This document shows positions 15,513 through 27,354 of a stretch of 64,000 nucleotides of DNA, one piece after another. This DNA comes from Candidatus Uhrbacteria bacterium RIFCSPLOWO2_01_FULL_47_25 (GTDB lineage Bacteria > Patescibacteriota > Patescibacteriia > GWA2-46-9). The translations under genes and the position numbers were made by a program. The notes under the pieces are model-generated. The model was given only the letters and a program-made list of their open reading frames with translations, had not been told where the DNA came from and ran no database searches. Where the stretch lies: the NCBI GenBank assembly GCA_001791325.1, contig MGEK01000039.1, forward strand, positions 1,175 to 65,174. The letters run 5' to 3'. The first letter of the stretch is position 1; each line of letters opens with the position of its first letter.

Positions 15513-15753
15513 CAATTCAGTAATGCTGCCTTTTTCTCGTGATTTTTCAATAATCTCTAAATCATCTCGAGCATATTTAGTTAGCTTGCGAAAAATTTTT
15601 TTATTACCCTTAATCTTTTCAAAAATTCCTCTAATTTGATTCACCCACTCGGGCAATCGCTCTCCGCTCGGCATTTCCCCTTCTGGCAATTTTCCGACAG
15701 ACATAAATCAATTACCCCGCCCCAAGGGGCAGGGAAAGAAATTTACATGCATA

Positions 15754-16014
15754 TCATGATTCAAGCGCGGCAATCAAACTTTTTGCGGTTTTGTGAGTAG
15801 TATAGTTACCTAAAGCATAATCAAGCCGCGCTTCATTGATGATTTCATCAAACGTTTCGGCTTCATTTACACGTCTGATGTCGTCTGTAGAAATCTCCAA
15901 TATAATCTTCTTTTCACGAGGATACCGAGAAAGATAGCGCAAAGCAGACAATGGTAAGTTTATCGTTGCCTCGTGGGTTCTTTTTGAATTAGCCTTACTT
16001 ATTTTGGTTCTCAT
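15754..16014 (-). CDS. hypothetical protein (terminal cassette-like ORF)
   Basis: 86-aa ORF at the distal end of the repeat-punctuated island; no family recognised. Confidence 0.35.
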   Translation of the reverse strand: MRTKISKANSKRTHEATINLPLSALRYLSRYPREKKIILEISTDDIRRVNEAETFDEIINEARLDYALGNYTTHKTAKSLIAALES

Positions 16015-16089
16015 ATCGAGAGTGCTTATAAAAATATCATGGCACGAAAGAAAAATTCAAGCAAATTTGGACGATGGTCTGTAAGAGCC

Positions 16090-16270
16090 AAGTCAGGTAC
16101 ACGCTGTTATGCGAAGTAGGTTACGGGATAAATTAATTAAAAATCGCCTAACGGCTCGCGGCTATGCGGAGTCCTGAAGGAATTGTATCACAATTCCTGA
16201 GGGATTACGTATACACACGCTGTTATATGATGTAATGAAAAATTCTTAATTCGCCGATAGGCGAATTATT
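16090..16270. repeat. attC-like modular palindromic repeat, copy A (short form)
   Basis: CACGCTGTTATGCGAAGTA ... CGCCTAACGGCTCGCGG-hairpin-CGTATACACACGCTGTTATATGATGTA, followed by the hairpin ATTCGCCGATAGGCGAAT. Confidence 0.6.
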
Positions 16271-17393
16271 TAATCGGGGCAATTTTTTTAAATTTTTTCA
16301 AAATTTCTCTTTCGAATTCGTCAATACCAAAAATCTTCTCAAATTCTTTTATAGTTTCTATGAGTTTCCCGTGCGGAAAAATGCCTTGCAGAAGTGGTTT
16401 ATTTTTAACTCGTGCTATCATTTCATCAGTTGGTTGCCAGTCGATTTTTGCCTTATCAAATAACTTTTTAAATTGATAACATTCTTGCTTCATTACCAAT
16501 AATTTTAACTTCTCAAAATTCATTTTGCGAATTTGTTTATAGATTTCGGTAGCTTTTATTGAAAATTCATCAACAAGGTTGTTTATTTCGTCTATTTTGA
16601 GAAATTCTCCATCGGCCCGTACAGCAAATTTTTTCATACCTGCCACAGGACTTTGTCCTTTAGAAATTGTATGACAGCCGACAAAGGATATTTTCCATAA
16701 AACATTTTCATAAATCGCGTAAATAACAACCTCTTTTACGTTTGCCAACAACTTTTCCGTCCATAATTCTTTCGGTCGGAGATTGGGGAAATGCCGGATT
16801 AATAGTACTTGATTAGATTTTAATGTGTATGGACCATAAACATCCCAACCGAGGTCAGTTACTACATCATTATAAAGCCCATGGACAAGCGAGCCAGCGG
16901 CCGTTATGAGCTGTCCAATTTTGCGAGCGCTTTGAATATCGGCTTTGTTCCATTTTATGTGAGATATGAACGTGCCAATTTCGGAGTTTGTATGACGTGG
17001 ATTCGATTTCAATGCGAAAGGATCGTCTGGACAACTTTCCTTGAGCATACGTGCGAAAAAATTTGCTACTGATTTATAATCCTTTTTATTCTCCGTTGGC
17101 TTAGCGTGGTAGGAAGGAATAAGTTTTATGAGAATTGCCCGCAGGTTAGAGGGTGGCGGGAGTATTCCTTTAATTTCACTAAAATGTTTTGATTCCAAAT
17201 CTAATTTTTTGATTGCATGCGCAATACTTGCTACCCATAAATCATACCAAAGAGGAAAAAAATGATAAAAATCAAGTGGTTGAAATCCCTCTAACACCTG
17301 CCCTTTAAAAACGTTTGAAGCGGATTTTGAAAATTCTTTAATCCAAGACATATACTTTTCCTTTTTGGCCGTCAACGCGGATGCGCATGCCAT
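16266..17393 (-). CDS. hypothetical protein (cassette ORF; 3' gene of a three-gene unit)
   Basis: 375 aa, no recognised family; its probable start (MSWIKEF) overlaps the upstream gene by a few nt. Confidence 0.45.
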   Translation of the reverse strand: MACASALTAKKEKYMSWIKEFSKSASNVFKGQVLEGFQPLDFYHFFPLWYDLWVASIAHAIKKLDLESKHFSEIKGILPPPSNLRAILIKLIPSYHAKPTENKKDYKSVANFFARMLKESCPDDPFALKSNPRHTNSEIGTFISHIKWNKADIQSARKIGQLITAAGSLVHGLYNDVVTDLGWDVYGPYTLKSNQVLLIRHFPNLRPKELWTEKLLANVKEVVIYAIYENVLWKISFVGCHTISKGQSPVAGMKKFAVRADGEFLKIDEINNLVDEFSIKATEIYKQIRKMNFEKLKLLVMKQECYQFKKLFDKAKIDWQPTDEMIARVKNKPLLQGIFPHGKLIETIKEFEKIFGIDEFEREILKKFKKIAPIK

Positions 17394-17667
17394 TTTTTAT
17401 CTTTTGGGTTGCTTCTTTGGTGTTGACAACGCAGGGAATACCCATCTCCCTGCTTAAAATAGCAGGATGTGAAGTGATGCCGCCAATATCCGTGATAATT
17501 GCCGCTGCCCTTACCATTGCGGTCACCATCGTCGGATCGGTTATCGTGGTTACTAAAATATTTCCCTCTTCAAATGAAGAAGGGTCGTCGCCAGAATAAA
17601 ATAATCTGGCGGTGCCTTCTATGTTTCCCGGGCTTGCGCCCATGCCTGTGAGTAATATTTTAGCCAT
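17338..17667 (-). CDS. stand-alone PEP-utilising enzyme mobile (swivelling phosphohistidine) domain protein
   Basis: GGITSHPAILSREMGIPCVV is the phosphohistidine swivel-domain signature of PEP synthase, PPDK and rifampin-phosphotransferase-type enzymes. Only 109 aa. Confidence 0.7.
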   Translation of the reverse strand: MAKILLTGMGASPGNIEGTARLFYSGDDPSSFEEGNILVTTITDPTMVTAMVRAAAIITDIGGITSHPAILSREMGIPCVVNTKEATQKIKNGMRIRVDGQKGKVYVLD

Positions 17668-17669
17668 AG

Positions 17670-18626
17670 TTATTGTAGTGAGTCGACTTTTTTAGGTTTT
17701 ATGTTGTTGGCTTTAATATACTCTTTTGCCAACTCAGTTAATGCGGGGATGTTCAGTTTGTATTCCTGTGTTTCTCCATTTTCACGTCGCAATATAATTG
17801 TAACTTGTTTTTCTCCTTGGTTATCGTTTTGTATCCGCAAATCCCAACTATCAAGTATTTTTAAACTCCCGCCAATTTCTTCCAAATTTTCAAAACCTAC
17901 TACGCTTTCTTTATTTTTTTCTCTTTCTATAGCATATTTCAGAAATGCTTCGGTTGATGTTTTGTGTCCCGAGCTAACCAGATTAATTGATTTACCGCCT
18001 GGCATATAATCTGGCAAATGGACAAGGCGATTAATCTTGAAAGCGACAGAAGCGGCTTGCTCCCGCGGACTCGGCGTTTCTTCATCTGGTCGCTTGTCGC
18101 CAAAAGAAAGATACCACTCTAAAGCTGGCTCTTCTGCATATTCTGCGGCTGCTTCCTGTTCATCGGGCGGTAGTTCATCAAATTTTTTTCCCGAATAATG
18201 CTCGTCGATGTATTGTTGTCTTTTTGGTAACATGATTGCATCGTACTGCTGCATAAATTTTTTGCTTGCGGCTAAGGCAGGCAGAGAAAAAAATGCCTGC
18301 GTAGTTTCTGACCTTTGTAAAATATTGGGGTTAACTTCTGCGGCTTGAAATACAGAAGTTAGTGTTTCTTTGGTTCTGTCTATTGCGGTAGCGTATGCCT
18401 TAGTAATTTTGCGACCAGCTAGTTGACTTTTTCCATAAGTTTCTGCGCGTTGTTTTCCTGTTTCTGAAATGCTTGACGTCGATAGTCCTTGAATTCCTTC
18501 CGCAAAGACTTGCCCAGACGCTTTTTGCGAATGGCGGACAAAAGTAAATCTTATTTCTGTATTATGCCCTCGTTCTTCTTTTAGTTCTTCAGGTTGTTCA
18601 ATTTGTGGTCTTCGTTCGTTAATCAT
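17670..18626 (-). CDS. hypothetical protein, possibly histidine-phosphatase (PGAM-like) superfamily
   Basis: The N-terminal RHSQ motif (FTFVRHSQKA...LSETGKQRAE) and a later SSGHKTSTEA segment resemble the RHG...H catalytic motifs of branch-1 histidine phosphatases; the similarity is weak. Confidence 0.4.
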   Translation of the reverse strand: MINERRPQIEQPEELKEERGHNTEIRFTFVRHSQKASGQVFAEGIQGLSTSSISETGKQRAETYGKSQLAGRKITKAYATAIDRTKETLTSVFQAAEVNPNILQRSETTQAFFSLPALAASKKFMQQYDAIMLPKRQQYIDEHYSGKKFDELPPDEQEAAAEYAEEPALEWYLSFGDKRPDEETPSPREQAASVAFKINRLVHLPDYMPGGKSINLVSSGHKTSTEAFLKYAIEREKNKESVVGFENLEEIGGSLKILDSWDLRIQNDNQGEKQVTIILRRENGETQEYKLNIPALTELAKEYIKANNIKPKKVDSLQ

Positions 18627-18659
18627 ATTGGTTGGTAAAAAATTTAAAAAAATTGCCCC

Positions 18660-19040
18660 GATTAATTTGCCCGATAGGGCAAAAAAAAATTTTCATTATT
18701 TCACATAACGGCTCGCGGCTATGCGGAGTCCTGAAGGAATTGTATCACAATTCCTGAGGGATTACGTATAGCCGCTGTTCGGCGATGTGCGCCGCGCGCA
18801 CGCCTGCCCGCCGAAGTATGGGGTGTTTGAATTCAGCATCTTAGTGAATAAGGAACGAAGGCGGGAGCCGAACAGCGGGAACCGCGAGCCGTTAGGCAAA
18901 ATGCGCGGCGCATTTTGCCTAACGTTCGCGTATATCTGATGTTTTGCGGAGCGTAGCGGAGCAAAATATGGGTGAGTATTTGGCGTTAGCCAAGCGCGAA
19001 CCAGATATACGCTGTTATATGATGTATGCTTTTCTTTTTG
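18660..19040. repeat. attC-like modular palindromic repeat, copy B (long form)
   Basis: TTGCCCGATAGGGCAA hairpin, then ACATAACGGCTCGCGG...GCTGTTCGGCGATGTGCGCCGCGCGCAC...GCCGAACAGCGGGAACCGCGAGCCGTTAGGCAAAATGCGCGGCGCATTTTGCCTAACGTTCGCGTATATCTGATGTTTTGCG...CAAAATATGGGTG...CCAGATATACGCTGTTATATGATGTA. Confidence 0.65.
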
Positions 19041-19145
19041 TCTCGCCTCAACGAGACCACTTTTCTATAATGAACAAATTTTATTTTTGTCTTGGCGTAG
19101 GGGCAGAGGGGCTGGGGGTGAATGCCACGAAGCCAAGACACCTTA

Positions 19146-20294
19146 TTATTCGTTGTCGGTGAATATATCAATGTAGTTCTTATACATATATGACTGCCTG
19201 TACTTCTTGCCCTTATCCTTTGGAATTAAAATACCCATTTTGATAAATCTATCAATAACTGTTTGTGCGCCAGCGCGAGTAAAGCCAGTCCATTTTTGAA
19301 TAACACTAACAGTTACAATGGGCTGCGCATATAATTTTGGTAACACCAAAGCTGCGCTTTCAGAAGCGCGTTTGCCAAGAGTTTGAATTTCGAGCAGGTC
19401 TTTCTCGCGCAAGATAGTGATTTTACCGACAGTATCTATTGCTTCGTTAGCAATTTCAATGACACCCTCAAGAAAGAAATCTATCCAATCCGATATGTTA
19501 CCATTATGGTAACTCAACAACTTTTCGTAATACAATTTTTGGTATTTTTTGAAAAAAGACGACAAAAACAAGACCGGCTTTTCCAAGTAGCCCTCTTTCC
19601 AAAGGTAAAAGGTAATCAACATTCTTCCGGTTCTGCCATTGCCATCCAAAAACGGGTGAATGGTTTCAAATTGAGCATGAATTAGTCCGGCTTTTATTAC
19701 GGTTGGTATTGCGTCGTCGGTATGAATAAACTTTTCCAAATCATTAAGCGCGCGATGCATTTCATCAACTGGCGGCGGAACAAAATTTGCGTTATCTGGG
19801 CGAGTACCGCCAATCCAATTTTGACTTTTACGGAATTCGCCCGGGTCGGAAAAATGTGTTGCGCGTGCTTTCTGCATAAGTTGCTTGTGCAGTTCACGAA
19901 TAAACCGGAGGACCATTGGAAAACCGTCTGTTCTCATTCTTTTTATTCCATAGTTGAGCGCCTTGATGTAGTGAAGAATGTCATCTACATCATCCGGTAT
20001 TTTCGTATCTATTTTTGCTTCCGCCGCGATTGCATCTATCATGGTCGCTCTCGTACCTTCAATTTGGCTGGAGGAAGCTGCGTCTTTTCGTAAATACATC
20101 AAAAGAAAAAAGTCAGCGTCCGGTAGTAATTTGGTAATGCCGTCCAATTTGCCAAGCAGGCGAGTGGCTTCATTGTTCTTTTTAAGGATATTTTGATCAA
20201 AACCAACCCCCTCCTTTGGTGGAAAGGGGTGCGGAATAAAAGCTTTAAATCCAGCAGGTTGCGCTTTGTATACGCCCATCTCAATGTTTTGCAT
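19146..20294 (-). CDS. Fic/DOC family protein (AMPylation-type Fic motif; class II with an N-terminal inhibitory motif)
   Basis: Canonical Fic motif IHPFLDGNGRTGR. An SxxxEG-type inhibitory motif (SSQIEG) lies N-terminal in the same chain. Confidence 0.85.
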   Translation of the reverse strand: MQNIEMGVYKAQPAGFKAFIPHPFPPKEGVGFDQNILKKNNEATRLLGKLDGITKLLPDADFFLLMYLRKDAASSSQIEGTRATMIDAIAAEAKIDTKIPDDVDDILHYIKALNYGIKRMRTDGFPMVLRFIRELHKQLMQKARATHFSDPGEFRKSQNWIGGTRPDNANFVPPPVDEMHRALNDLEKFIHTDDAIPTVIKAGLIHAQFETIHPFLDGNGRTGRMLITFYLWKEGYLEKPVLFLSSFFKKYQKLYYEKLLSYHNGNISDWIDFFLEGVIEIANEAIDTVGKITILREKDLLEIQTLGKRASESAALVLPKLYAQPIVTVSVIQKWTGFTRAGAQTVIDRFIKMGILIPKDKGKKYRQSYMYKNYIDIFTDNE

Positions 20295-20401
20295 AGTTTG
20301 TTTACATCTTTAGTTAATGTATACAAAGTATATCAGTTTGTATATTTTATGTCAAGTAAAGTTTACAAACTGCGAGGTGAATACCCCGAAGCCAAGACAC
20401 C

Positions 20402-21451
20402 TCATTTCGTTCTCTCAATAATTTTGACTATTCCATTATTAGCGTCTAATTCCACCAAATCGTTGTTTTGTAAAATTTTAGTGGCATTTTTTGTGCCAAC
20501 AATACAAGGAATATTTAGCTCTCTGCTGATTATAGCGGCGTGGCAGGCGATTCCGCCTTCGTTTGTTACTATACCCAAAACATTTTTCAAATAAGGCGTG
20601 AATTTTATGGAAGTCATCGGCGCCACCACTATTTTGTTGTCTAAATTATTCAGATCCGATTCTCTCAAGATCAGCCGAACTCGGCCTTTTATTAAACCCT
20701 TGTTGGCGACACTACCTTTAATAAAATCGGTTTGATTTTTTTCTTCTTTAATATTGCTTTTTAAAATTTGCTTGGCTTTTGCACCAGTTAAAATTTTTGT
20801 TTTACCGCCATTAACAGTTAAAAATAAAATAAGTTTTTTTCTTTCTCCTAAAATATTTTCTTTTATCTTTTTGTTATCTTTTAGCAAGTCAATTATTTCG
20901 TCTGGTAAGGCGTAAAATAATAGGTCGCTCTTAATTTTCTTTCTTTTTCCTATTTCTTGAAAAAAAAGTGGTAAAAAATCTTTCTGAATTTTTTCATAGT
21001 CAGCTATTCCTCTCGCTTCTCTTAATTTGTCTTTTATCGCCTGCGACAAATCATTCTCGTTTAATACCATGCCAAAATATTTTGGCAATGTAAAAAGAGG
21101 AAAATAATTTTGATAAATATTAACAAAATCAGTAAAAATTTTCAGCAGTTGTTTGTCTGTAAAATTATCTAATTTTTTACATTCTAAAAATTTTTTCAGC
21201 CTTTCGTTTTGCTTCTTCAGTTTGTCAAGTATTTTTTCAAAAATTTCAAGCTTCTTAGTTTTTAATTCATTCAGAAACTCATCATATTCGCTCTTTAAAC
21301 GCCATGAATGGACAATGCCATTTTCATGCATCATTAAAAAATTTTTCAGATTTTTTCCAATATTTTTTTTGTAATTCTTAAGATAGCCTATCATTATGCA
21401 ATAGGTTGTGAATAAATCGCATTCTCTCTCGGTAAATTTTGTCCATTCCAT
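20402..21451 (-). CDS. hypothetical protein with a C-terminal PEP-utilising enzyme mobile domain
   Basis: C-terminus NEGGIACHAAIISRELNIPCIVGTKNAT is the swivel-domain signature. The N-terminal ~240 aa is Lys/Asn-rich and unassigned. Confidence 0.6.
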   Translation of the reverse strand: MEWTKFTERECDLFTTYCIMIGYLKNYKKNIGKNLKNFLMMHENGIVHSWRLKSEYDEFLNELKTKKLEIFEKILDKLKKQNERLKKFLECKKLDNFTDKQLLKIFTDFVNIYQNYFPLFTLPKYFGMVLNENDLSQAIKDKLREARGIADYEKIQKDFLPLFFQEIGKRKKIKSDLLFYALPDEIIDLLKDNKKIKENILGERKKLILFLTVNGGKTKILTGAKAKQILKSNIKEEKNQTDFIKGSVANKGLIKGRVRLILRESDLNNLDNKIVVAPMTSIKFTPYLKNVLGIVTNEGGIACHAAIISRELNIPCIVGTKNATKILQNNDLVELDANNGIVKIIERTK

Positions 21452-21458
21452 AGGTTTG

Positions 21459-22268
21459 TTATAATTTAATTTTTTCTGTCCCGACTAGCTCTCTTTTTTT
21501 ATCAAAATGAAATTCCTCACAGAAATGTGGTACCTCATCAATTGAAAATTGACCTTGCTGTTTTTCATAGCTCATTTGGCCCAATGGGCCACTATGGCCA
21601 ACGGCAAACAAAATGATAGGCGACTGTCGCTGGTCGGATTGCGGTCTTTCAGACTTTGTAACAACGCTATGTACTAATTCCATAAACTGTTTATATCTTT
21701 CGGCCGCTTTTTTCGGCAGTTTTGTTTTTTCAAATTTAACATTGGGTTCATTCATTGCGTGAAAATATTGTAAAAGCGCTTCCATTTCGTTTATGGCATT
21801 TGGGCCCTTTGTCATTTCTGCGTACGGCTTCCAAGTGTCAGGGTGCGCGTCGGCTAGTAATTTAACTAGTTCTGTACTGTCAATTTCCAACATATCAATT
21901 CGTTTTGCATTTTTCTTGTCTTGAGATTCGCCTTGTGCTTCCAGTTGAGCCAAGCGAGCCGTGGCAAGATGTCTGGTCAGTTGCGTGCGGTCTTTTCCGC
22001 TATCCATCACAACTAAAATACTCTCTTTGGGCAATTGTGCGTAAAGATTGTCAGCTAACCGTAAACTGCGGATAATACCGTCTAATTTTAGTGGTGCTTC
22101 TCCCAATTTAACAACTTCCGGAAAATCGTTTTCCAAAACAGATATAACCAAGTTAAATTCTTTCGCCGTCAATTTTGATTTCAATTCCTCCGGATTCAAT
22201 TTCCACGTTCCTTTGTCGGCATGACGAGTGATTATAGATTCTTGATTTTCAAGAAATTTTTCAGTCAT
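21459..22268 (-). CDS. hypothetical protein (co-oriented immediately upstream of the swivel-domain protein)
   Basis: 269 aa; no confident family. Confidence 0.45.
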   Translation of the reverse strand: MTEKFLENQESIITRHADKGTWKLNPEELKSKLTAKEFNLVISVLENDFPEVVKLGEAPLKLDGIIRSLRLADNLYAQLPKESILVVMDSGKDRTQLTRHLATARLAQLEAQGESQDKKNAKRIDMLEIDSTELVKLLADAHPDTWKPYAEMTKGPNAINEMEALLQYFHAMNEPNVKFEKTKLPKKAAERYKQFMELVHSVVTKSERPQSDQRQSPIILFAVGHSGPLGQMSYEKQQGQFSIDEVPHFCEEFHFDKKRELVGTEKIKL

Positions 22269-22384
22269 ATTTTTGAGTTAGTAATATTTATAAAATCGTT
22301 TTCTGAGCGACGAGAGGAGCGAAGAAAACACCATATACCCCCCTCTTAAAAAATAAAAATAAAATTTATTCATTATAGAAAAGT

Positions 22385-22580
22385 GTTAGGCGTTAGCCGT
22401 AAAAAGAAAAGCATATTTCGTATAACGTTTAAGTGTATGCGAAGTTGAAAAACCCCGCTGCCTTGATTTAATTGTATCAAAAAAAGCGGGGTTTTTCAAC
22501 TTGGGTGAAAGACATGGCACAATTCTTTAGTTACATTAAAAAGTGTGCCAGTCCTAAACCGCATACACTTTGTTAGGCGA
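22385..22580. repeat. attC-like repeat, diverged copy H
   Basis: GTGTTAGGCGTTAGCC ... CGTATAACGTT-GTGTATGCGAAGT-[16-bp perfect stem AGTTGAAAAACCCCGC/GCGGGGTTTTTCAACT]-TGGGTGAAAG ... CCGCATACACTTTGTTAGGCGATGTA. Confidence 0.5.
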
Positions 22581-22626
22581 TGTAAAAACAAGTTCTTTCC
22601 TTAATTCGGGAATAAGGAAAATTATA

Positions 22627-22884
22627 TTAAGCGCCCTTCTCAGCAAGTCTTTTTATTACTGCTTTGTCAATAACATCCCTCACTACGGAGTGTATTTTTT
22701 TCCCGCCATCTTCAGTGAACAATGCTTCGACTTTGGGGAACCATGGCTTGTCTTCGCACATTTTTCTTGCATCACCAGACTCCCATCCCAAAAAATTATT
22801 AAATGCCGCTAGCTCACCATCAGTTAATTGATTAAGAGCCATGTTCGCAGCAGCCTCCAACTGCGGTGGTTGTTCTCTGTTCAT
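22627..22884 (-). CDS. hypothetical protein (cassette ORF)
   Basis: 85-aa ORF bounded by attC-like repeats on both sides. Confidence 0.4.
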   Translation of the reverse strand: MNREQPPQLEAAANMALNQLTDGELAAFNNFLGWESGDARKMCEDKPWFPKVEALFTEDGGKKIHSVVRDVIDKAVIKRLAEKGA

Positions 22885-22974
22885 AGGTTTGTATGATTAA
22901 AATTTATAAGTGTCTTTTGTATAAATAGCTTAATATAATTTTCGTTAAAATTCAATAGAACTTGTTTTTATTTC

Positions 22975-23330
22975 ACCTAAGGTCCGCGGCATATCCCTGC
23001 AGTGACGCGAGCCCCGCCCTACGGGGCGAGTGGCATTGCGGATATGCCGCTGTTATGCGATGTGCGCCGCGCGCACGCCTGCCCGCCGAAGTATGGGGTG
23101 TTTGAATTCAGCATCTTAGTGAATAAGGAACGAAGGCGGGAGCAGAACAGCGGGAACCGCGGACCTTATGCAAAATGCACGGCGCATTTTGCATAACGTT
23201 TCGGCATATCTGATGTTTGCCGTAGCGTAGCGAAGGCAAATATGGGTGAATAAATTTTGCATTCCTTAGCATTATTATAGCGCAAAATTTATGAACCAGA
23301 TATGCCGTGTTATGCGATGCTGCAAAAATA
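22975..23330. repeat. attC-like modular palindromic repeat, copy C (long form)
   Basis: AAGGTCCGCGG...GCTGTTATGCGATGTGCGCCGCGCGCAC...CAGAACAGCGGGAACCGCGGACCTTATGCAAAATGCACGGCGCATTTTGCATAACGTTTCGGCATATCTGATGTTTGCCG...CAAATATGGGTG...CCAGATATGCCGTGTTATGCGATGC. The outer stem is the covariant GGTCCGCGG/CCGCGGACC. Confidence 0.65.
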
Positions 23331-23336
23331 TTTTAT

Positions 23337-24110
23337 TTATTTGTAAAGATAACCTACTCCTAGAATCATTGATTGTCCAAATTTTTTCTTATCTTTATTA
23401 TCGACAAACGTTAGCAACGGTACCCCCTTCTTTTTACACTCCTCATGTTGATAAATGTTTTGACCCAAAATTATTTTTTTCCACGCTTTATTTACTTCCT
23501 CGTATGCGATAATGTCGTGAAATGCGGCCAGCCCATTTTTATCCAAAAAATAATTATAGTTTTTCCAATCATTTAATACCGACTTACATGTATGATCTCC
23601 ATCAATAAATAAAAAATCCACCTTCCTATTGCCCAAATACTCTTTTAGGTCTTCTCGTGCTTTTTTAGAGGTAGACTTCCTTCTAATATGCAAATAGTTA
23701 TTTTTTAGATAAAAATGCCTAAGTTTATTAATCGTGTCTTCATATGTATAGAACTGTTTTTCATATTTAGATCCCGTTATATAAGGATCAATAGTGATGA
23801 AGGTTGTTCCCGAATTACCAAGAGCTGCAGATAATAGGTAAATAAAGCCACCACGTGCCGATCCTATTTCTAAAATAATTTTGGGTCTTCTTCTTCTTAT
23901 TTTTTCTAAGGTGTGAACAATCTCAAGCGGGGTTTGCCCCACGTCTGGACACTCAAAATTTGGACAATCAATTCTTAGTTTTTCTGTAATGTATTTTATT
24001 CTTTTGTTCATAATTAAATATTTTTGCAGTTTCACATAACGTCCGGGTATCATGCGCTCGTACTCGTATGGCGCATATACCCTGTTAGGCGATGTAAATA
24101 TTTTGCTCAA
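23337..24110 (-). CDS. class I SAM-dependent methyltransferase (TylF/MycF-like Methyltransf_24-type family)
   Basis: Motif I ILEIGSARGG and LFIDGDHT. The track ORF begins with TTG and overlaps attC-like copy D, so the true start is probably an internal ATG (MIPGRY or MNKRIK). Confidence 0.6.
   Translation of the reverse strand: MSKIFTSPNRVYAPYEYERMIPGRYVKLQKYLIMNKRIKYITEKLRIDCPNFECPDVGQTPLEIVHTLEKIRRRRPKIILEIGSARGGFIYLLSAALGNSGTTFITIDPYITGSKYEKQFYTYEDTINKLRHFYLKNNYLHIRRKSTSKKAREDLKEYLGNRKVDFLFIDGDHTCKSVLNDWKNYNYFLDKNGLAAFHDIIAYEEVNKAWKKIILGQNIYQHEECKKKGVPLLTFVDNKDKKKFGQSMILGVGYLYK
24030..24100. repeat. attC-like repeat, copy D (minimal ~70-bp form)
   Basis: CACATAACG-TCCGGGTATCATGCGC-loop-GCGCATATACCC-TGTTAGGCGATGTA. 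Confidence 0.55.
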
Positions 24111-24177
24111 TGAGATAAAAAATGAGAGTTGGGCGAGAGGGTTGGGTTTCCTCTCGCGCCCGTGAGCTGATTGTACA

Positions 24178-24411
24178 CTACGCAGATTGATCGAGGCGAC
24201 GCAAGCTCTTCACGGTAACGCCATGGGAGACCGTTTCGCCATCCCAGACGATCGGTACCTCCCAAGGATCGTAGAGACATTTCGGGCCTCCGAATGCTGC
24301 TTGCACCGTCCCGATTTTCTTCGCGTCGACGTGCTGAACTCGAAGCCCCGCAGGAAAATCATCGTCGATTTGTGCCATGAGTGACTCCTTACTGTCTGTG
24401 GTGGTGCCCAA
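24178..24411 (-). CDS. hypothetical protein (visibly GC-richer cassette ORF)
   Basis: 77-aa ORF whose composition differs from the AT-rich neighbours; flanked by attC-like repeats. Confidence 0.35.
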   Translation of the reverse strand: MGTTTDSKESLMAQIDDDFPAGLRVQHVDAKKIGTVQAAFGGPKCLYDPWEVPIVWDGETVSHGVTVKSLRRLDQSA

Positions 24412-24439
24412 CTCTCATTTTTTATCAATATCAATGGAC

Positions 24440-24745
24440 AAAATATTTATTTCGCCTAACGGCTCGCGGCTATGCGGAGTCCTGAAGGAATTGTATCACA
24501 ATTCCTGAAGGATTACGTATAGCCGCTGTTAGGCGATGTGCGCCGCGCGCACAAGCATAACAGCGGGAACCGCGAGCCGTTATGCAAAATGCGCGGCGCA
24601 TTTTGCCTAACGTTCGCGCATATCTGATGTTTGCGGCTGGTATAATATAACGCCGATAGGCGTTTTACCAGCCGCAAATATGGGTGGAGGCTTGGCGTCA
24701 GCCAAGCCGTAGCCAGATATGCGCTGTTATATGATGTAACAATAC
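24440..24745. repeat. attC-like modular palindromic repeat, copy E (long form)
   Basis: CGCCTAACGGCTCGCGG-hairpin-GCTGTTAGGCGATGTGCGCCGCGCGCAC-AAGCATAACAGCGGGAACCGCGAGCCGTTATGCAAAATGCGCGGCGCATTTTGCCTAACGTTCGCGCATATCTGATGTTTGCGGCTGG...CCAGCCGCAAATATGGGTG...CCAGATATGCGCTGTTATATGATGTA. Confidence 0.65.
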
Positions 24746-24793
24746 ATTCTTAACTCCGACCGAAGAGAGGAGTTATGGAAATCAGGGTAATTT

Positions 24794-25288
24794 TTAATCA
24801 AAAAATTCGCAACGTTTATTGTACAGTAGCTCATTAACCTCAACCATAATTGCTTTTAACTCCGCAAAAAGTGCAAGGATGGGATGACCGTCGGAAACCT
24901 CGTAATGAGGGTAACCACTGGCAGGTGTTATTAGTGTGAGGCTTTTTGCGGCTTCCTGTATTTGTTTGTGAAGAGCATCGGCCCTGTCAGCTAGTTGATT
25001 GTATCTTTCTCCTTTTTCTTTTTGCTCTGCCTCCAAAGCGTCTATATCAACCTTTGGAATGAGGCGAGCTATTTTAACTTGCTCCACCTCCGCATATGTG
25101 TGCTTGCCTCTAACTTCTTTTAATTCTTCTGGTGTTGTGTTTTGATGACCACGCCTTCTGCTAGGTTCAAGCGCATAAATTAGATCACCTGCTGTCCCGA
25201 TCCAGTCATTCCAAAGGTGGCCTGAAAATTGTTTCCGTTTGAATGGTTCGTAATATTCTGGTGGCGGTTTAAGGTCTTCTGTAGACAT
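24794..25288 (-). CDS. hypothetical protein (cassette ORF)
   Basis: 164 aa, no family recognised; bounded by repeats. Confidence 0.45.
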   Translation of the reverse strand: MSTEDLKPPPEYYEPFKRKQFSGHLWNDWIGTAGDLIYALEPSRRRGHQNTTPEELKEVRGKHTYAEVEQVKIARLIPKVDIDALEAEQKEKGERYNQLADRADALHKQIQEAAKSLTLITPASGYPHYEVSDGHPILALFAELKAIMVEVNELLYNKRCEFFD

Positions 25289-25354
25289 ATTTTTTGATTA
25301 CAATAAAATTGCCCTGATTTCCAGCCGCCGCGTCAGCGGCGGAAAGAATGTATT

Positions 25355-25460
25355 GTTATTTCATATAACGTTCGCATATATCTGATGTTGCGACTGAAAG
25401 GAGCGATATGGACAAAACGAAGCGGAGCCAGATATACGCTTGTTGTGCGATGTTAGCGAG
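25355..25460. repeat. attC-like repeat, copy F (partial: 3' modules only)
   Basis: CATATAACGTTCGCATATATCTGATGTTGCG...GAGCCAGATATACGCTTGTTGTGCGATGTTAG. Confidence 0.5.
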
Positions 25461-25463
25461 CAT

Positions 25464-25745
25464 TCATCGATAGACGCACGGATAGCACCGACTCGTTTCC
25501 GTATTGCAGGAGTGCGACACTTTTTCTCCCGGAATGAATTTTGCCCCCGTAAAAGAGGCACACCAGCAGTCATCATCTGATTGACACACCGTGTTTTCAT
25601 TAGTTTCTGAAATTTCCACATTCACTGCCTCGGGCTGAGGCTGTACGAATTGAAATCTAAGAAAAAGTGCCGCTCCGATTGCTACCACAATCAGAATCAC
25701 TATTCCTAACGCCGTTTTAATTATCATAGTGTTTATATAATGCAA
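25464..25745 (-). CDS. hypothetical small Cys-rich membrane-anchored/secreted protein (cassette ORF)
   Basis: N-terminal hydrophobic anchor followed by a Cys-rich C-terminal domain (CQSDDDCWC...CNTETSRCYPC). Confidence 0.4.
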   Translation of the reverse strand: MHYINTMIIKTALGIVILIVVAIGAALFLRFQFVQPQPEAVNVEISETNENTVCQSDDDCWCASFTGAKFIPGEKVSHSCNTETSRCYPCVYR

Positions 25746-25784
25746 AACCTTTTTAAATCAGCAGAACAAGCTCGCCAATTTCGT

Positions 25785-26075
25785 ACAAGGTCCGCGGCAT
25801 ATCCTTGCAGTGACGCGAGAGCGCGTACGCTCGAGCGGCATTGCGGATATGCCGCTGTTATGCGATGTGCGCCGCGCGCACGAGCAGAACAGCGGGAACC
25901 GCGGACCTTATGCAAAATGCGCGGCGCATTTTGCATAACGTATCGGGATAAGCGAAGTTTTTACGAAGTGAAACGAAGTAAAAATTTGGGTGAAGGGCAA
26001 ATGCAACTCATTAATGTAAGTAATAAATCGCATTTGCCCTGAACCGCTTATCCCGTGTTAGGCGATGAATTTTTG
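25785..26075. repeat. attC-like modular palindromic repeat, copy G
   Basis: CAAGGTCCGCGG...GCTGTTATGCGATGTGCGCCGCGCGCACGAGCAGAACAGCGGGAACCGCGGACCTTATGCAAAATGCGCGGCGCATTTTGCATAACGTATCGGGATAAGCG...CGCTTATCCCGTGTTAGGCGATGAA. Confidence 0.6.
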
Positions 26076-26081
26076 AAACTA

Positions 26082-26390
26082 TTAGACGGGTAATTTTTTA
26101 ATATCGTTGTGCGGATGTAGATTGATACGAATTGCATCAACTATATCAATTTTACTCTCGTCGATACCACCGACATCTGGAAGGCTGCTTAATTCATGTT
26201 CTATATCTGTTTGTGTCAATTCGTCCTTTTCTAATTTTTTTAAAAGACGCTTTTTTGCTTGTTCCGCCACGCCCAAAGTAATGGATAGTCTATGCTCTAA
26301 TTTTGGAGGCGGAAGTTCTCTCAATATTTTGTCTAAAATTGGCGTGGCGGAAGCAGCCTGCTCCCTTCCTTCGTGTCCCATATTTTCCAT
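26082..26390 (-). CDS. hypothetical protein (integrase-proximal cassette ORF)
   Basis: 102 aa; first minus-strand ORF next to the divergently transcribed recombinase. Confidence 0.4.
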   Translation of the reverse strand: MENMGHEGREQAASATPILDKILRELPPPKLEHRLSITLGVAEQAKKRLLKKLEKDELTQTDIEHELSSLPDVGGIDESKIDIVDAIRINLHPHNDIKKLPV

Positions 26391-26538
26391 ATGATTTATG
26401 TTAGAAATTAGTTAATAGTTTCAAAAATTTTTCGCCTAACTCGTTTATATGCGACGTGTTTTCGTATATGATACACAATATTGCTTAATGAACGAATATC
26501 GTTTATAATGACAATATGTCATTATAATATCACTAAAA
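26391..26538. promoter_or_regulatory. divergent intergenic region between first cassette and recombinase (candidate attI / cassette promoter region)
   Basis: AT-rich. Contains GCCTAACTCG and CGTGTT boxes resembling the repeat cores, plus -10-like TATAAT/TATGAT hexamers on both strands. Confidence 0.3.
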
Positions 26539-27354
26539 ATGATAGATGCATATTTAAAAAGAACGGAAGACGAATTGAGATTGCGCAATTACAGCCCCAA
26601 GACTATAAAAAGCTACCTAGCCTGCCTCGCTGGTTACCTGCGCGCGAAGAAGAGCAATTTAGAATCCATTGACACTGATTTTATCAAGCGGTTTTTGTTG
26701 AGTAAAAAGGACGCGGGAAAATCCCCACGAACGATCAATCAGAGCTTGCAAGCAATTAATTTCTTCTGTCGCAATGTTTTAAAAAGTCATTGCGATATAG
26801 ATATTAAATTCGCCAAAACCCCTAGCAAGTTGCCGATAGTATTATCGCGCGATGAGATAAAGTTGATCATTGATTCCATTAGCAACGAGAAACATTGTTT
26901 AATGATCGCACTGGCTTATGCTGGTGGATTGCGGGTAAGCGAGATCATCAATCTAAGAATTAAAGATTTGAATATAAACGAGCTGACGATCCACATTAAA
27001 GGCGCCAAGGGGAATCGCGACCGTCTTACTATATTATCTGATAAGTATAAAAATAGGCTTGAAAAAATCATTATCGGCGGGAACCCCAATGATTATGTTT
27101 TCGCGAGCGAACGCGGCGGTAAACTAACAGAGCGCACGGCCCAAAAGATTTTTGAAAATGCGCGGCGAAAAGCGAATATAACCAAAGACGCGACGTTTCA
27201 CTCCTTGCGGCACAGTTTTGCCACCCATTTATTGGAGAACGGCGTGGATGTGCGCTATGTGCAGGAATTATTGGGGCATCAAAATATCAGAACGACCCAG
27301 CTTTACACGCAAGTCACGAATCCACAGCTTAAAAATATCAAGAGTCCGCTATAA
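26539..27354 (+). CDS. tyrosine site-specific recombinase (Xer-like; no IntI-specific insertion)
   Basis: Catalytic residues are present: R in LAYAGGLRVSE, K in KGAKGNRDR, HxxR in HSLRHSFATHLL, H in LLGH, and the Y nucleophile in TTQLYTQV. The spacing between the catalytic K and the HxxR box is ~64 aa, so the ~35-aa IntI-specific insertion is absent. Confidence 0.85.
   Translation: MIDAYLKRTEDELRLRNYSPKTIKSYLACLAGYLRAKKSNLESIDTDFIKRFLLSKKDAGKSPRTINQSLQAINFFCRNVLKSHCDIDIKFAKTPSKLPIVLSRDEIKLIIDSISNEKHCLMIALAYAGGLRVSEIINLRIKDLNINELTIHIKGAKGNRDRLTILSDKYKNRLEKIIIGGNPNDYVFASERGGKLTERTAQKIFENARRKANITKDATFHSLRHSFATHLLENGVDVRYVQELLGHQNIRTTQLYTQVTNPQLKNIKSPL

Follow-up and report, generated by a model that had tools for sequence, protein, structure and literature searches.

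The window described here is a stretch of 64,000 nucleotides from Candidatus Uhrbacteria bacterium RIFCSPLOWO2_01_FULL_47_25 (contig MGEK01000039.1, positions 1,175 to 65,174 of the forward strand), in which two gene cassettes, A and B, each encode a split-off swivel phosphohistidine domain of the phosphoenolpyruvate (PEP)-utilising type together with a protein of the histidine-phosphatase type. The reading to which we give about an even chance is that each unit encodes one half, the phosphocarrier half, of a split dikinase for small molecules, akin to PEP synthase, rifampin phosphotransferase (RPH) and PpsAB/HpeHI, accompanied by a phosphatase. What is new here is that a swivel dikinase architecture, kin to the known small-molecule dikinases, has been split further, has an orphan domain as its partner and includes a phosphatase as an integral part. 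The system occurs in Patescibacteria only, and an integron-like element has captured it in this lineage. Cassette A contains A1 (17670..18626), A2 (17338..17667) and A3 (listed as 16266..17393), and cassette B contains B1 (21459..22268), B2 (20402..21451) and a SoFic gene. The five named open reading frames (ORFs), all on the minus strand, had been listed at these positions by a first-pass annotation, whose observation is confirmed and whose interpretation is in part supported.

Both swivel domains, which had been described as split off from their usual enzymes, exceed the gathering cutoff of the Pfam family PF00391 (23.1 bits): the stand-alone A2 protein of 109 aa scored 93.4 bits over residues 32–103 (nt 17359-17574), and the C-terminus of B2 scored 82.7 bits over residues 272–340 (nt 20432-20638). 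Each keeps the T/SxxGGxxxH loop with the catalytic histidine, the motif of this enzyme class (PMC12167813), as T59-DIGGITS-H67 in A2 and T296-NEGGIAC-H304 in B2, where the predicted phospho-acceptors are His67 (GGITSH) and His304 (GGIACH), respectively. In the B2 family, T296, G299, G300 and H304 are invariant. For A2, the closest likeness is to PEP synthase, in its central domain (119.8 bits with NCBIfam PRK06464, model positions 355–461), and the C-terminal domain of the B2 model has the swivel fold, matched by Foldseek to pyruvate kinase 2e28 (root-mean-square deviation 3.7 Å over 108 columns), PPDK and Enzyme I.

The swivels are the only homologous parts of the two units, which are therefore not paralogous. 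A duplication had been proposed, i.e., that one unit is a copy of the other, and this was rejected when BLASTP returned nothing for A1 versus B1 or for A3 versus B2 and the profile-profile comparisons were not significant, leaving the partner proteins of cassettes A and B with no detectable homology to each other.

In B2, a protein of 349 aa, a reduced RPH-like N-terminal domain (nt 20732-21451) precedes the swivel. These N-terminal 240 residues had been taken as unknown; they are related to the rifampin-binding domain of RPH. The NCBIfam model PRK06241 (an RPH-like “PEP synthase”) aligns B2 residues 103–346 to model positions 670–890 of 891, reaching 170 residues upstream of the swivel, and RIF_Ptrans_rph aligns residues 178–344 to model positions 701–863. 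An AlphaFold2 model based on 24 homologues (mean predicted local confidence, pLDDT, 89.9; predicted template modelling score, pTM, 0.86) found the rifampin phosphotransferases 5fbu, 5fbt and 5hv1 as its best PDB matches in Foldseek (E 7.6e-12, to 5fbu, to 8.7e-11, over 282–320 columns), and the matches that follow share the swivel only, over ~100–135 columns. The assignment of the swivels to modules of the PEP synthase, PPDK and RPH type was borne out, and B2 is structurally an RPH fragment. Given the NCBIfam alignments and the Foldseek matches to RPH, the modelled B2 corresponds to the HpeH/PpsA-type subunit of two-component dikinases, a substrate-binding domain followed by a swivel, at about half the size. 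In addition, residues 130–348 share 34% identity over 220 residues with a “module+swivel” repeat in a giant protein from a Moraniibacteriota genome (L007, see below), and on this likeness B2 is a free-standing copy of such a unit. The B2 family is conserved as full-length ORFs in 27 clusters. The B2 protein of the window is identical to an NCBI protein assigned to Candidatus Uhrbacteria bacterium RIFCSPHIGHO2_12_FULL_46_13, and the window locus recurs on more than 24 groundwater metagenome contigs.

The partner of the free swivel in cassette A is A3, a Patescibacteria-specific protein with an orphan fold. An alternative upstream start at 17393 gives the 375 aa of the earlier listing; the gene is probably 16266..17351, with 361 aa counted from Met15, since this is where the homologues start and where a natural swivel–A3 fusion joins, and since 361 aa is also the length in other gene calls. 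The family comprises 119 clusters at 90% identity, and all those with a named source are from Patescibacteria or from an unclassified “bacterium”. Over 85 sequences that are 38–86% identical to the window protein, 17 residues are invariant, including D27, D110, Y160-N161-D162, D166, H227, K283 and Q289. The AlphaFold2 model (pLDDT 94.5, pTM 0.92) shows a helical N-terminal half, a six-to-seven-stranded antiparallel sheet and C-terminal helices; this combination of helical bundle and antiparallel sheet contains no alpha/beta barrel of the PEP/pyruvate type, as judged from the secondary structure of the model, and the corresponding Pfam family of PEP/pyruvate-binding TIM barrels (PF02896) had no hit in any of the five proteins. 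A3 had no hit in Pfam, NCBIfam or PADLOC and none among PDB sequences by single-sequence or profile search. In Foldseek, nothing was found at E<=0.001 in the PDB (best E 0.02, template modelling (TM) score 0.14–0.21) or in BFVD. The low-probability top hits were helix-grip or lipid-binding cups (MlaC-like, Aster, StAR, SRPBCC cyclase and the catalytic domains of Rieske oxygenases), and this lean of the predicted fold is, at TM 0.1–0.2, only a lead. By profile comparison, A3 is unrelated to the N-terminal domain of B2 and to the modules of the giant L007 proteins, and a region resembling the RIF-binding domain, linked to a swivel, was found in B2 and not in A3. A substrate-binding fold was among the features sought in the partner proteins, and A3 bears no resemblance to a known domain of this kind; it is proposed as the acceptor or substrate-binding partner of the swivel.

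This proposal comes from the genomic linkage of the two genes, which was followed in 28 A3 loci from GTDB species representatives and in three further loci from exact-protein look-ups, all annotated with our own hidden Markov models. In each of the 30 loci that have upstream sequence (window included), A3 shares its operon with a swivel gene, which is usually directly upstream of it, with overlapping ends, and one gene further off in L037. The overlap of gene ends noted for the three-gene unit of cassette A holds for A2 and A3, which share 14 nt, and not for A1 and A2, which are 2 nt apart. Natural swivel–A3 fusions occur in L009 (P0092) and L024, and a fused paralogue is located in L031 upstream of a separate pair. 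Swivel and A3 are, therefore, an obligate pair across Patescibacteria. Second, strongly diverged swivel–A3′ pairs were also seen in tandem (L027, 11040-12448; L038, 11071-12445; and L031, 6774-8213), and P0029 is a 648-aa protein with A3 and A3′ in tandem; these pairs suggest an expansion of the family with changing specificity.

The third component is the histidine-phosphatase-type protein. A1 (318 aa) appears to be a diverged member of branch 1 of the histidine phosphatase superfamily, with a large insertion at about residues 100–215. The earlier suggestion of a possible histidine phosphatase is supported by a match to Pfam His_Phos_1 (PF00300) of 23.0 bits (cutoff 21.7) that covers residues 28–101, i.e., the N-terminal third only, and by a conserved core in the family: R31-H32 (RHSQK) is present in at least 90% of the sequences, and R84 and H221 (GHKTS) are invariant. 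Precomputed PF00300 matches exist for 12 of the 53 clusters of this family. Its profile weakly matches the phosphoglycerate mutase 3r7a (E 0.0097), and apart from this match the searches of A1, A3 and B1 against PDB sequences gave nothing useful. B1 (269 aa), which had been left as an unknown, is a second and very diverged protein of the histidine-phosphatase type, judging by its motifs and by the matches of its relatives, of which there are only 26 among 1.84 billion cluster representatives. In this family, R15-H16 (RHADKG) is present in at least 90% of the sequences, R67, R94 and G224-H225 (GHSG) are invariant, and the canonical spacing “pL..G..q/r..la ... S...R..lT” can be recognized. His_Phos_1 is the sole recurrent Pfam family among the members, matched by 4 of 19 (best E 3.2e-6), and the B1 of the window itself has no such match.

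Across the A-type loci, a phosphatase-type gene is the other recurrent operon partner; it is usual rather than universal and comes in interchangeable forms. The A1 family is present in 14 loci, and in about nine the partner is instead a member of the “ARRH...” family, of ~232 aa, with the same N-terminal motif pattern as A1. In these “ARRH” proteins, the second catalytic histidine seems to have been replaced in the phosphatase core (LFDLNFEQ), and the RH nucleophile motif is retained. A clear His_Phos_1 neighbour (36 bits) was found in L024, and a weak match to calcineurin-type Metallophos (20.4 bits, cutoff 21.5) in a truncated ORF of L034. Around the B2 homologues the picture is similar: in L012, a B1 homologue overlaps the B2 homologue and His_Phos_1 and DHH genes also precede it; in L010, a HAD hydrolase precedes; and in L011, a second swivel protein follows. 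The replacement of one phosphatase type by another that is not homologous points to a hydrolytic role of this component.

An ATP-grasp protein, the remaining part of a dikinase, is encoded next to the operon in three relatives. The operon of L017 reads A1–swivel–A3–PPDK_N, in which the last gene overlaps the stop codon of A3 (PF01326, 333 bits). In the complete 1.2-Mb Moraniibacteriota genome L007, a 1521-aa ORF begins at the A3 stop; it has PPDK_N (339 bits) and then two “module+swivel” units, and is followed by a 1128-aa ORF with three more swivels. A stand-alone PPDK_N gene lies 2 kb from the operon in L024. Together with the natural swivel–A3 fusions, these neighbours support the earlier description of a modular phosphotransfer system. 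The putative giant ORF pair of L007 (9077-16872 in Candidatus Moraniibacteriota CP064975.1), directly downstream of the A1–swivel–A3 operon, amounts to one PPDK_N and five swivels with RPH-like modules between them, and is split into pieces in the recorded gene calls; no description of multi-swivel proteins of this kind was found in the literature.

On the split-dikinase reading, a PPDK_N-type ATP-grasp protein, encoded outside the window, would use ATP to phosphorylate the swivel histidine, His67 of A2 or His304 of B2. The swivel would then carry the phosphoryl group to an acceptor on its partner, which would be A3 in cassette A and the RPH-like N-terminal domain of B2 in cassette B. A1 or B1 would later remove the phosphate, either from the product, on which it would have been a temporary handle of the kind used in the Hpe pathway, or from the phosphorylated swivel in a SixA-like reset. 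There is precedent for such a division of labour, as HpeHI, CreHI and PpsAB are two-component dikinases with a separate ATP-grasp subunit, and in the Hpe pathway the substrate is phosphorylated, transformed and then dephosphorylated (PMC12167813). The direction of phosphate flow, the ATP-grasp protein acting here in trans, the acceptor role of A3 and the target of the phosphatase are what we infer from the arrangement of the genes.

Several points weigh against this reading. No ATP-grasp protein was found in the 64-kb window by tblastn with the PPDK_N domain or by Pfam on the ORFs of the units, and 27 of the 30 A-type loci have none within ~10 kb; of the partner folds that the first-pass annotation had proposed to look for, an RPH-like substrate-binding domain is present in B2 and no ATP-grasp or PEP-binding partner ORF in the window. 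A three-gene unit that moves as a self-contained cassette argues for autonomy. The pairing of a phosphatase with a kinase is just as compatible with regulation or with a futile cycle. For A1 and B1, the phosphatase fold is read from marginal Pfam scores and motifs, and since A3 resembles no known substrate-binding domain, linkage is the sole ground for the part assigned to it. Finally, no clue to the substrate was found, and nothing links either unit to any antibiotic, so that the earlier suggestion of an antibiotic kinase was not upheld; the phospho-relay that had been offered as the alternative may still apply.

Autonomy is the essence of the main rival, a His-to-His relay, which we consider rather unlikely. 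Here A1 or B1 would take a phosphoryl group from a phosphometabolite onto its own catalytic histidine and pass it to the swivel histidine, or the reverse, and the swivel would deliver it to an acceptor on A3 or the N-terminal domain of B2, making the unit a transphosphorylase that needs no other component. His_Phos_1 enzymes do act via a phospho-His intermediate, each unit travels as a complete cassette without ATP-grasp, most A-type loci (27 of 30) have no ATP-grasp gene nearby, and the RH nucleophile is kept even in the “ARRH” partners that have apparently lost the second histidine. HpeH alone, moreover, carries out ATP-independent phosphotransfer between the phosphorylated product and an acceptor (PMC12167813). 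The relay is harder to reconcile with the fact that the phosphatase-type partner is not universal, as its non-homologous substitutes (HAD and the weak Metallophos match) fit generic hydrolysis better, and with the ATP-grasp genes being operonic in L017 and L007; a transfer from a His_Phos_1 protein to a swivel was not found described in the literature searched. A further-reaching form of the idea, which we hold to be quite unlikely, takes A1–A2–A3 as an autonomous machine of a new kind that is free of ATP-grasp, with A3 as a new class of phospho-acceptor or donor, the whole as a plug-in cassette able to spread among ultra-small bacteria of the candidate phyla radiation (CPR), and the giant L007 proteins as chained relays.

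The location of both units in an integron-like array, with B1 and B2 in one cassette with SoFic (PADLOC 363 bits), brings to mind an anti-phage or stress module, which would either spend ATP in a futile cycle (ATP to AMP + 2 Pi) or act as a kinase on a molecule of the phage or host, B1–B2 perhaps in combination with SoFic; defence systems abound in integron cassettes (bioRxiv 10.1101/2024.07.02.601686, 10.1101/2024.07.02.601719). This has only a slim chance of being correct: PADLOC-DB v2 matched the neighbouring SoFic and none of A1, A2, A3, B1 and B2, SoFic has a promoter-like site of its own, Fic is not adjacent to the B2 homologues elsewhere, and no relatives of A3 or B2 were found on the viral contigs of IMG/VR. 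Outside this lineage, the wider context of both families is not defence-like, as they are found among housekeeping genes and their recurrent neighbours are TrmB and glycosyltransferases. A Pfam census of 102 nearest neighbours in 27 A3 loci (with L019 omitted as a duplicate of L008) gave TrmB sugar-type regulators as the most frequent neighbour (6 of the 27 loci, in each case divergent and located two genes upstream), followed by DNA gyrase A (three), GT2 glycosyltransferases (three) and GT1 (two), the remainder being mostly housekeeping genes. These neighbours, and an AP_endonuc_2 (xylose-isomerase-like) gene that overlaps the end of the swivel–A3 fusion gene in L009, would suit a carbohydrate dikinase with its phosphatase, i.e., a reversible phosphorylation of sugars or glycans under a sugar-sensing TrmB, by analogy with the dikinase and phosphatase logic of the plant glucan-water dikinase (GWD) and the phosphoglucan phosphatases SEX4 and LSF2. 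We regard this analogy as improbable, given that TrmB is present only in loci with “ARRH” partners, that A3 has no carbohydrate-binding module or recognisable sugar-binding signature, and that in compact patescibacterial genomes many neighbours are coincidental. That the units are debris, decayed fragments of PEP synthase or RPH trapped in cassettes, is scarcely credible. It is true that B2 looks like the last 40% of an RPH-type protein, and A2 like a central domain cut out of PEP synthase; yet the families are full-length across many genomes (119, 53, 27 and 26 clusters), with invariant catalytic residues, confident AlphaFold2 models, a conserved gene order and fusions, and the pseudogene reading was rejected on these conservation data.

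Viewed as a split dikinase, the system can be set beside the known ones. HpeHI, CreHI, PpsAB and RPH use the same swivel histidine carrier with the T/SxxGGxxxH motif; in HpeHI, CreHI and PpsAB the ATP-grasp protein is separate, as it is in the relatives L017 and L024, and the single-chain RPH has the same order as B2, a substrate-binding domain and then the swivel, with a structural match over nearly the full length. The later dephosphorylation step of the Hpe pathway may be compared with the phosphatase-type genes found here. In contrast to these enzymes, cassette A is split further, into a free swivel of 109 aa and a presumed acceptor, A3, of an unrelated and unmatched fold; B2, with 349 aa, is about half of HpeH (71 kDa) and retains only a part of the RIF-binding-like domain. 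The histidine-phosphatase-type gene is here integral to the operon, no ATP-grasp gene lies in the window, and the setting is a CPR host with integron-type cassettes. With PEP synthase and PPDK, the units share the A2 swivel, which is most similar to that of PEP synthase and has the PPDK-like GGxTSH motif, and the PPDK_N genes beside the relatives are of the same family; the PF02896 TIM barrel has no counterpart in the units, and A3 stands in its logical place with a different fold. As to the histidine phosphatases, A1 and B1 keep the branch 1 RH...R...H core of SixA and other His_Phos_1 proteins (dPGM, PhoE, GpgP), but they are far more diverged, A1 with a conserved insertion of ~115 aa and B1 with an insertion that separates the RH motif from the element of the core that comes next. 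SixA is an example of the histidine-phosphatase fold being able to dephosphorylate phospho-His carrier proteins; to our knowledge, such an activity on a swivel domain has never been demonstrated. The literature searched contained no stand-alone swivel paired with a histidine phosphatase and no swivel domains in defence systems.

Swivel dikinases, i.e., PEP synthase, PPDK, RPH and the two-component phenol kinases, are textbook cases of domain motion in catalysis, and the RPH-type enzymes, as kinases of small molecules and antibiotics, are a family that has been little charted. Here, their architecture is taken apart beyond earlier descriptions, down to a free carrier of 109 aa and an obligate partner whose fold, predicted with confidence, is unmatched among solved and viral structures. 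This makes it a compact and dissectable system for following how a swivel recognizes its docking partners, with A3 as a candidate for a new substrate-binding fold, and gives a lead on accessory metabolism or the modification of small molecules in CPR bacteria, a group whose genes are for the most part unannotated. Whether its practical meaning lies in resistance, in catabolism, in the turnover of glycans or in defence hinges on the substrate.

The mobility that had been ascribed to the cassettes is supported by flanking attC-like sites with covarying stems and by a divergent tyrosine recombinase at the head of the array. Between ~16 and 26 kb of the window, every gene unit is flanked by repeated elements; about 8–10 units, all on the minus strand, were observed within 15700-27354, and the attC-like imperfect palindromes between them fall into two sequence types. 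In cassette orientation, the layout of these sites is R″ (..TAAC), L″, a variable region with hairpins, L′, a bulge of 3–4 nt and R′ (GTTAkGC). The L″/L′ stems covary from site to site, the pairs being GCGTATATCTG / CAGATATACGC, GCGCATATCTG / CAGATATGCGC, CGGCATATCTG / CAGATATGCCG, CGGGATAAGCG / CGCTTATCCCG and AAGTGTATGCG / CGCATACACTT, and the single-strand folds reach z-scores down to -7.3. The boundary motif occurs eight times in the window versus 0.02 expected and, among the fetched loci, only in strains of the same lineage; the capture of the units by the integron-like element is lineage-specific.

Cassette A, with A1–A2–A3 in ~2.6 kb, lies between two minus-strand sites of the 106-nt type, one at 18696..18801 on its 5′ side and one at 16139..16244 (CATATAAC ... 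GCCGTTAGGC, with an internal hairpin) that closes its 3′ side. The former is the reference copy of the repeat family D2, being 96% identical to 24447-24552 and 71% identical to 16139-16244. Cassette B, of ~3.5 kb, extends from the minus-strand site at 22421..22583 on its 5′ side (R″ GCCTAAC, L″ AAAGTGTATGCG ... L′ CGCATACACTT, bulge AAAC, R′ GTTATAC) to the minus-strand site at 18912..19030 (R″ CATATAAC, L″ GCGTATATCTG ... L′ CAGATATACGC, bulge GAAC, R′ GTTAGGC), which closes the B1–B2–SoFic cassette. The second unit had been delimited as 20402..22268; B1 and B2 do belong together, and the cassette also holds the SoFic-type Fic protein (19146..20294, minus strand; PADLOC SoFic 363.4 bits, Pfam Fic_N and Fic). 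There is no attC site between B2 and SoFic, the gap being occupied by a hairpin and then by the near-consensus promoter-like site of SoFic (TTGACA-17-TATACT, 20355..20327); a scan for promoters and terminators returned no more sites than in shuffled sequence. A 31-nt element, in two copies that are 90% identical, overlaps the stop codons of B2 (20376-20406) and SoFic (19117-19147), and some attC-like sites abut back to back (18889-18925, 23163-23199, 24577-24613 and 25905-25941).

The tyrosine recombinase (26539..27354, plus strand, 271 aa) is Xer/IntI-like and transcribed divergently from the cassette array. It scored 216.4 bits with the NCBIfam model recomb_XerA_Arch (“tyrosine recombinase/integron integrase”, cutoff 220) and 206.7 with the integron integrase model TIGR02249 (cutoff 265), the latter in two stretches that skip model positions ~176–250; in this alignment the IntI-specific insertion is absent. 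As the recombinase falls below both cutoffs and has no IntI-specific insertion, the element is called integron-like and not a proven integron. It has in common with sedentary chromosomal integrons the unidirectional array, the R″-L″...L′-R′ palindromes with TAAC/GTTA cores and covarying stems, and a divergent recombinase at one end. It differs in the short recombinase, in the unusually large cassettes A and B with three genes each, in the back-to-back position of some sites and in its host, which belongs to the Patescibacteria.

The other cassettes (23337-24110, 24794-25288, 25464-25745, 22627-22884, 24178-24411 and 15754-16014) encode a Methyltransf_24 methyltransferase and several small proteins of 77–164 aa with no family match, one of which has an N-terminal transmembrane segment. 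The window contains no tRNA or tmRNA genes and no Rfam families, hence no island boundary of the tRNA type. Between the mur/MraY cluster and the last cassette, the segment 15220-15750 is relatively GC-rich (48% at 15.0–15.5 kb), with ORFs that overlap and are found on either strand, one of which (115 aa) is reported by gene callers, and with no Rfam, tRNA or tmRNA match. The mur/MraY flank has no synteny with A-type loci elsewhere except in L023, where homologues of FtsW and orf120 lie a few kb upstream. The TrmB genes of the A3 loci, found in L008, L009, L027, L029, L030 and L036, lie ~1–1.5 kb upstream of the swivel gene. Among the strain variants L001–L006, the gene tables differ in small cassette ORFs, and these differences suggest a turnover of cassettes.

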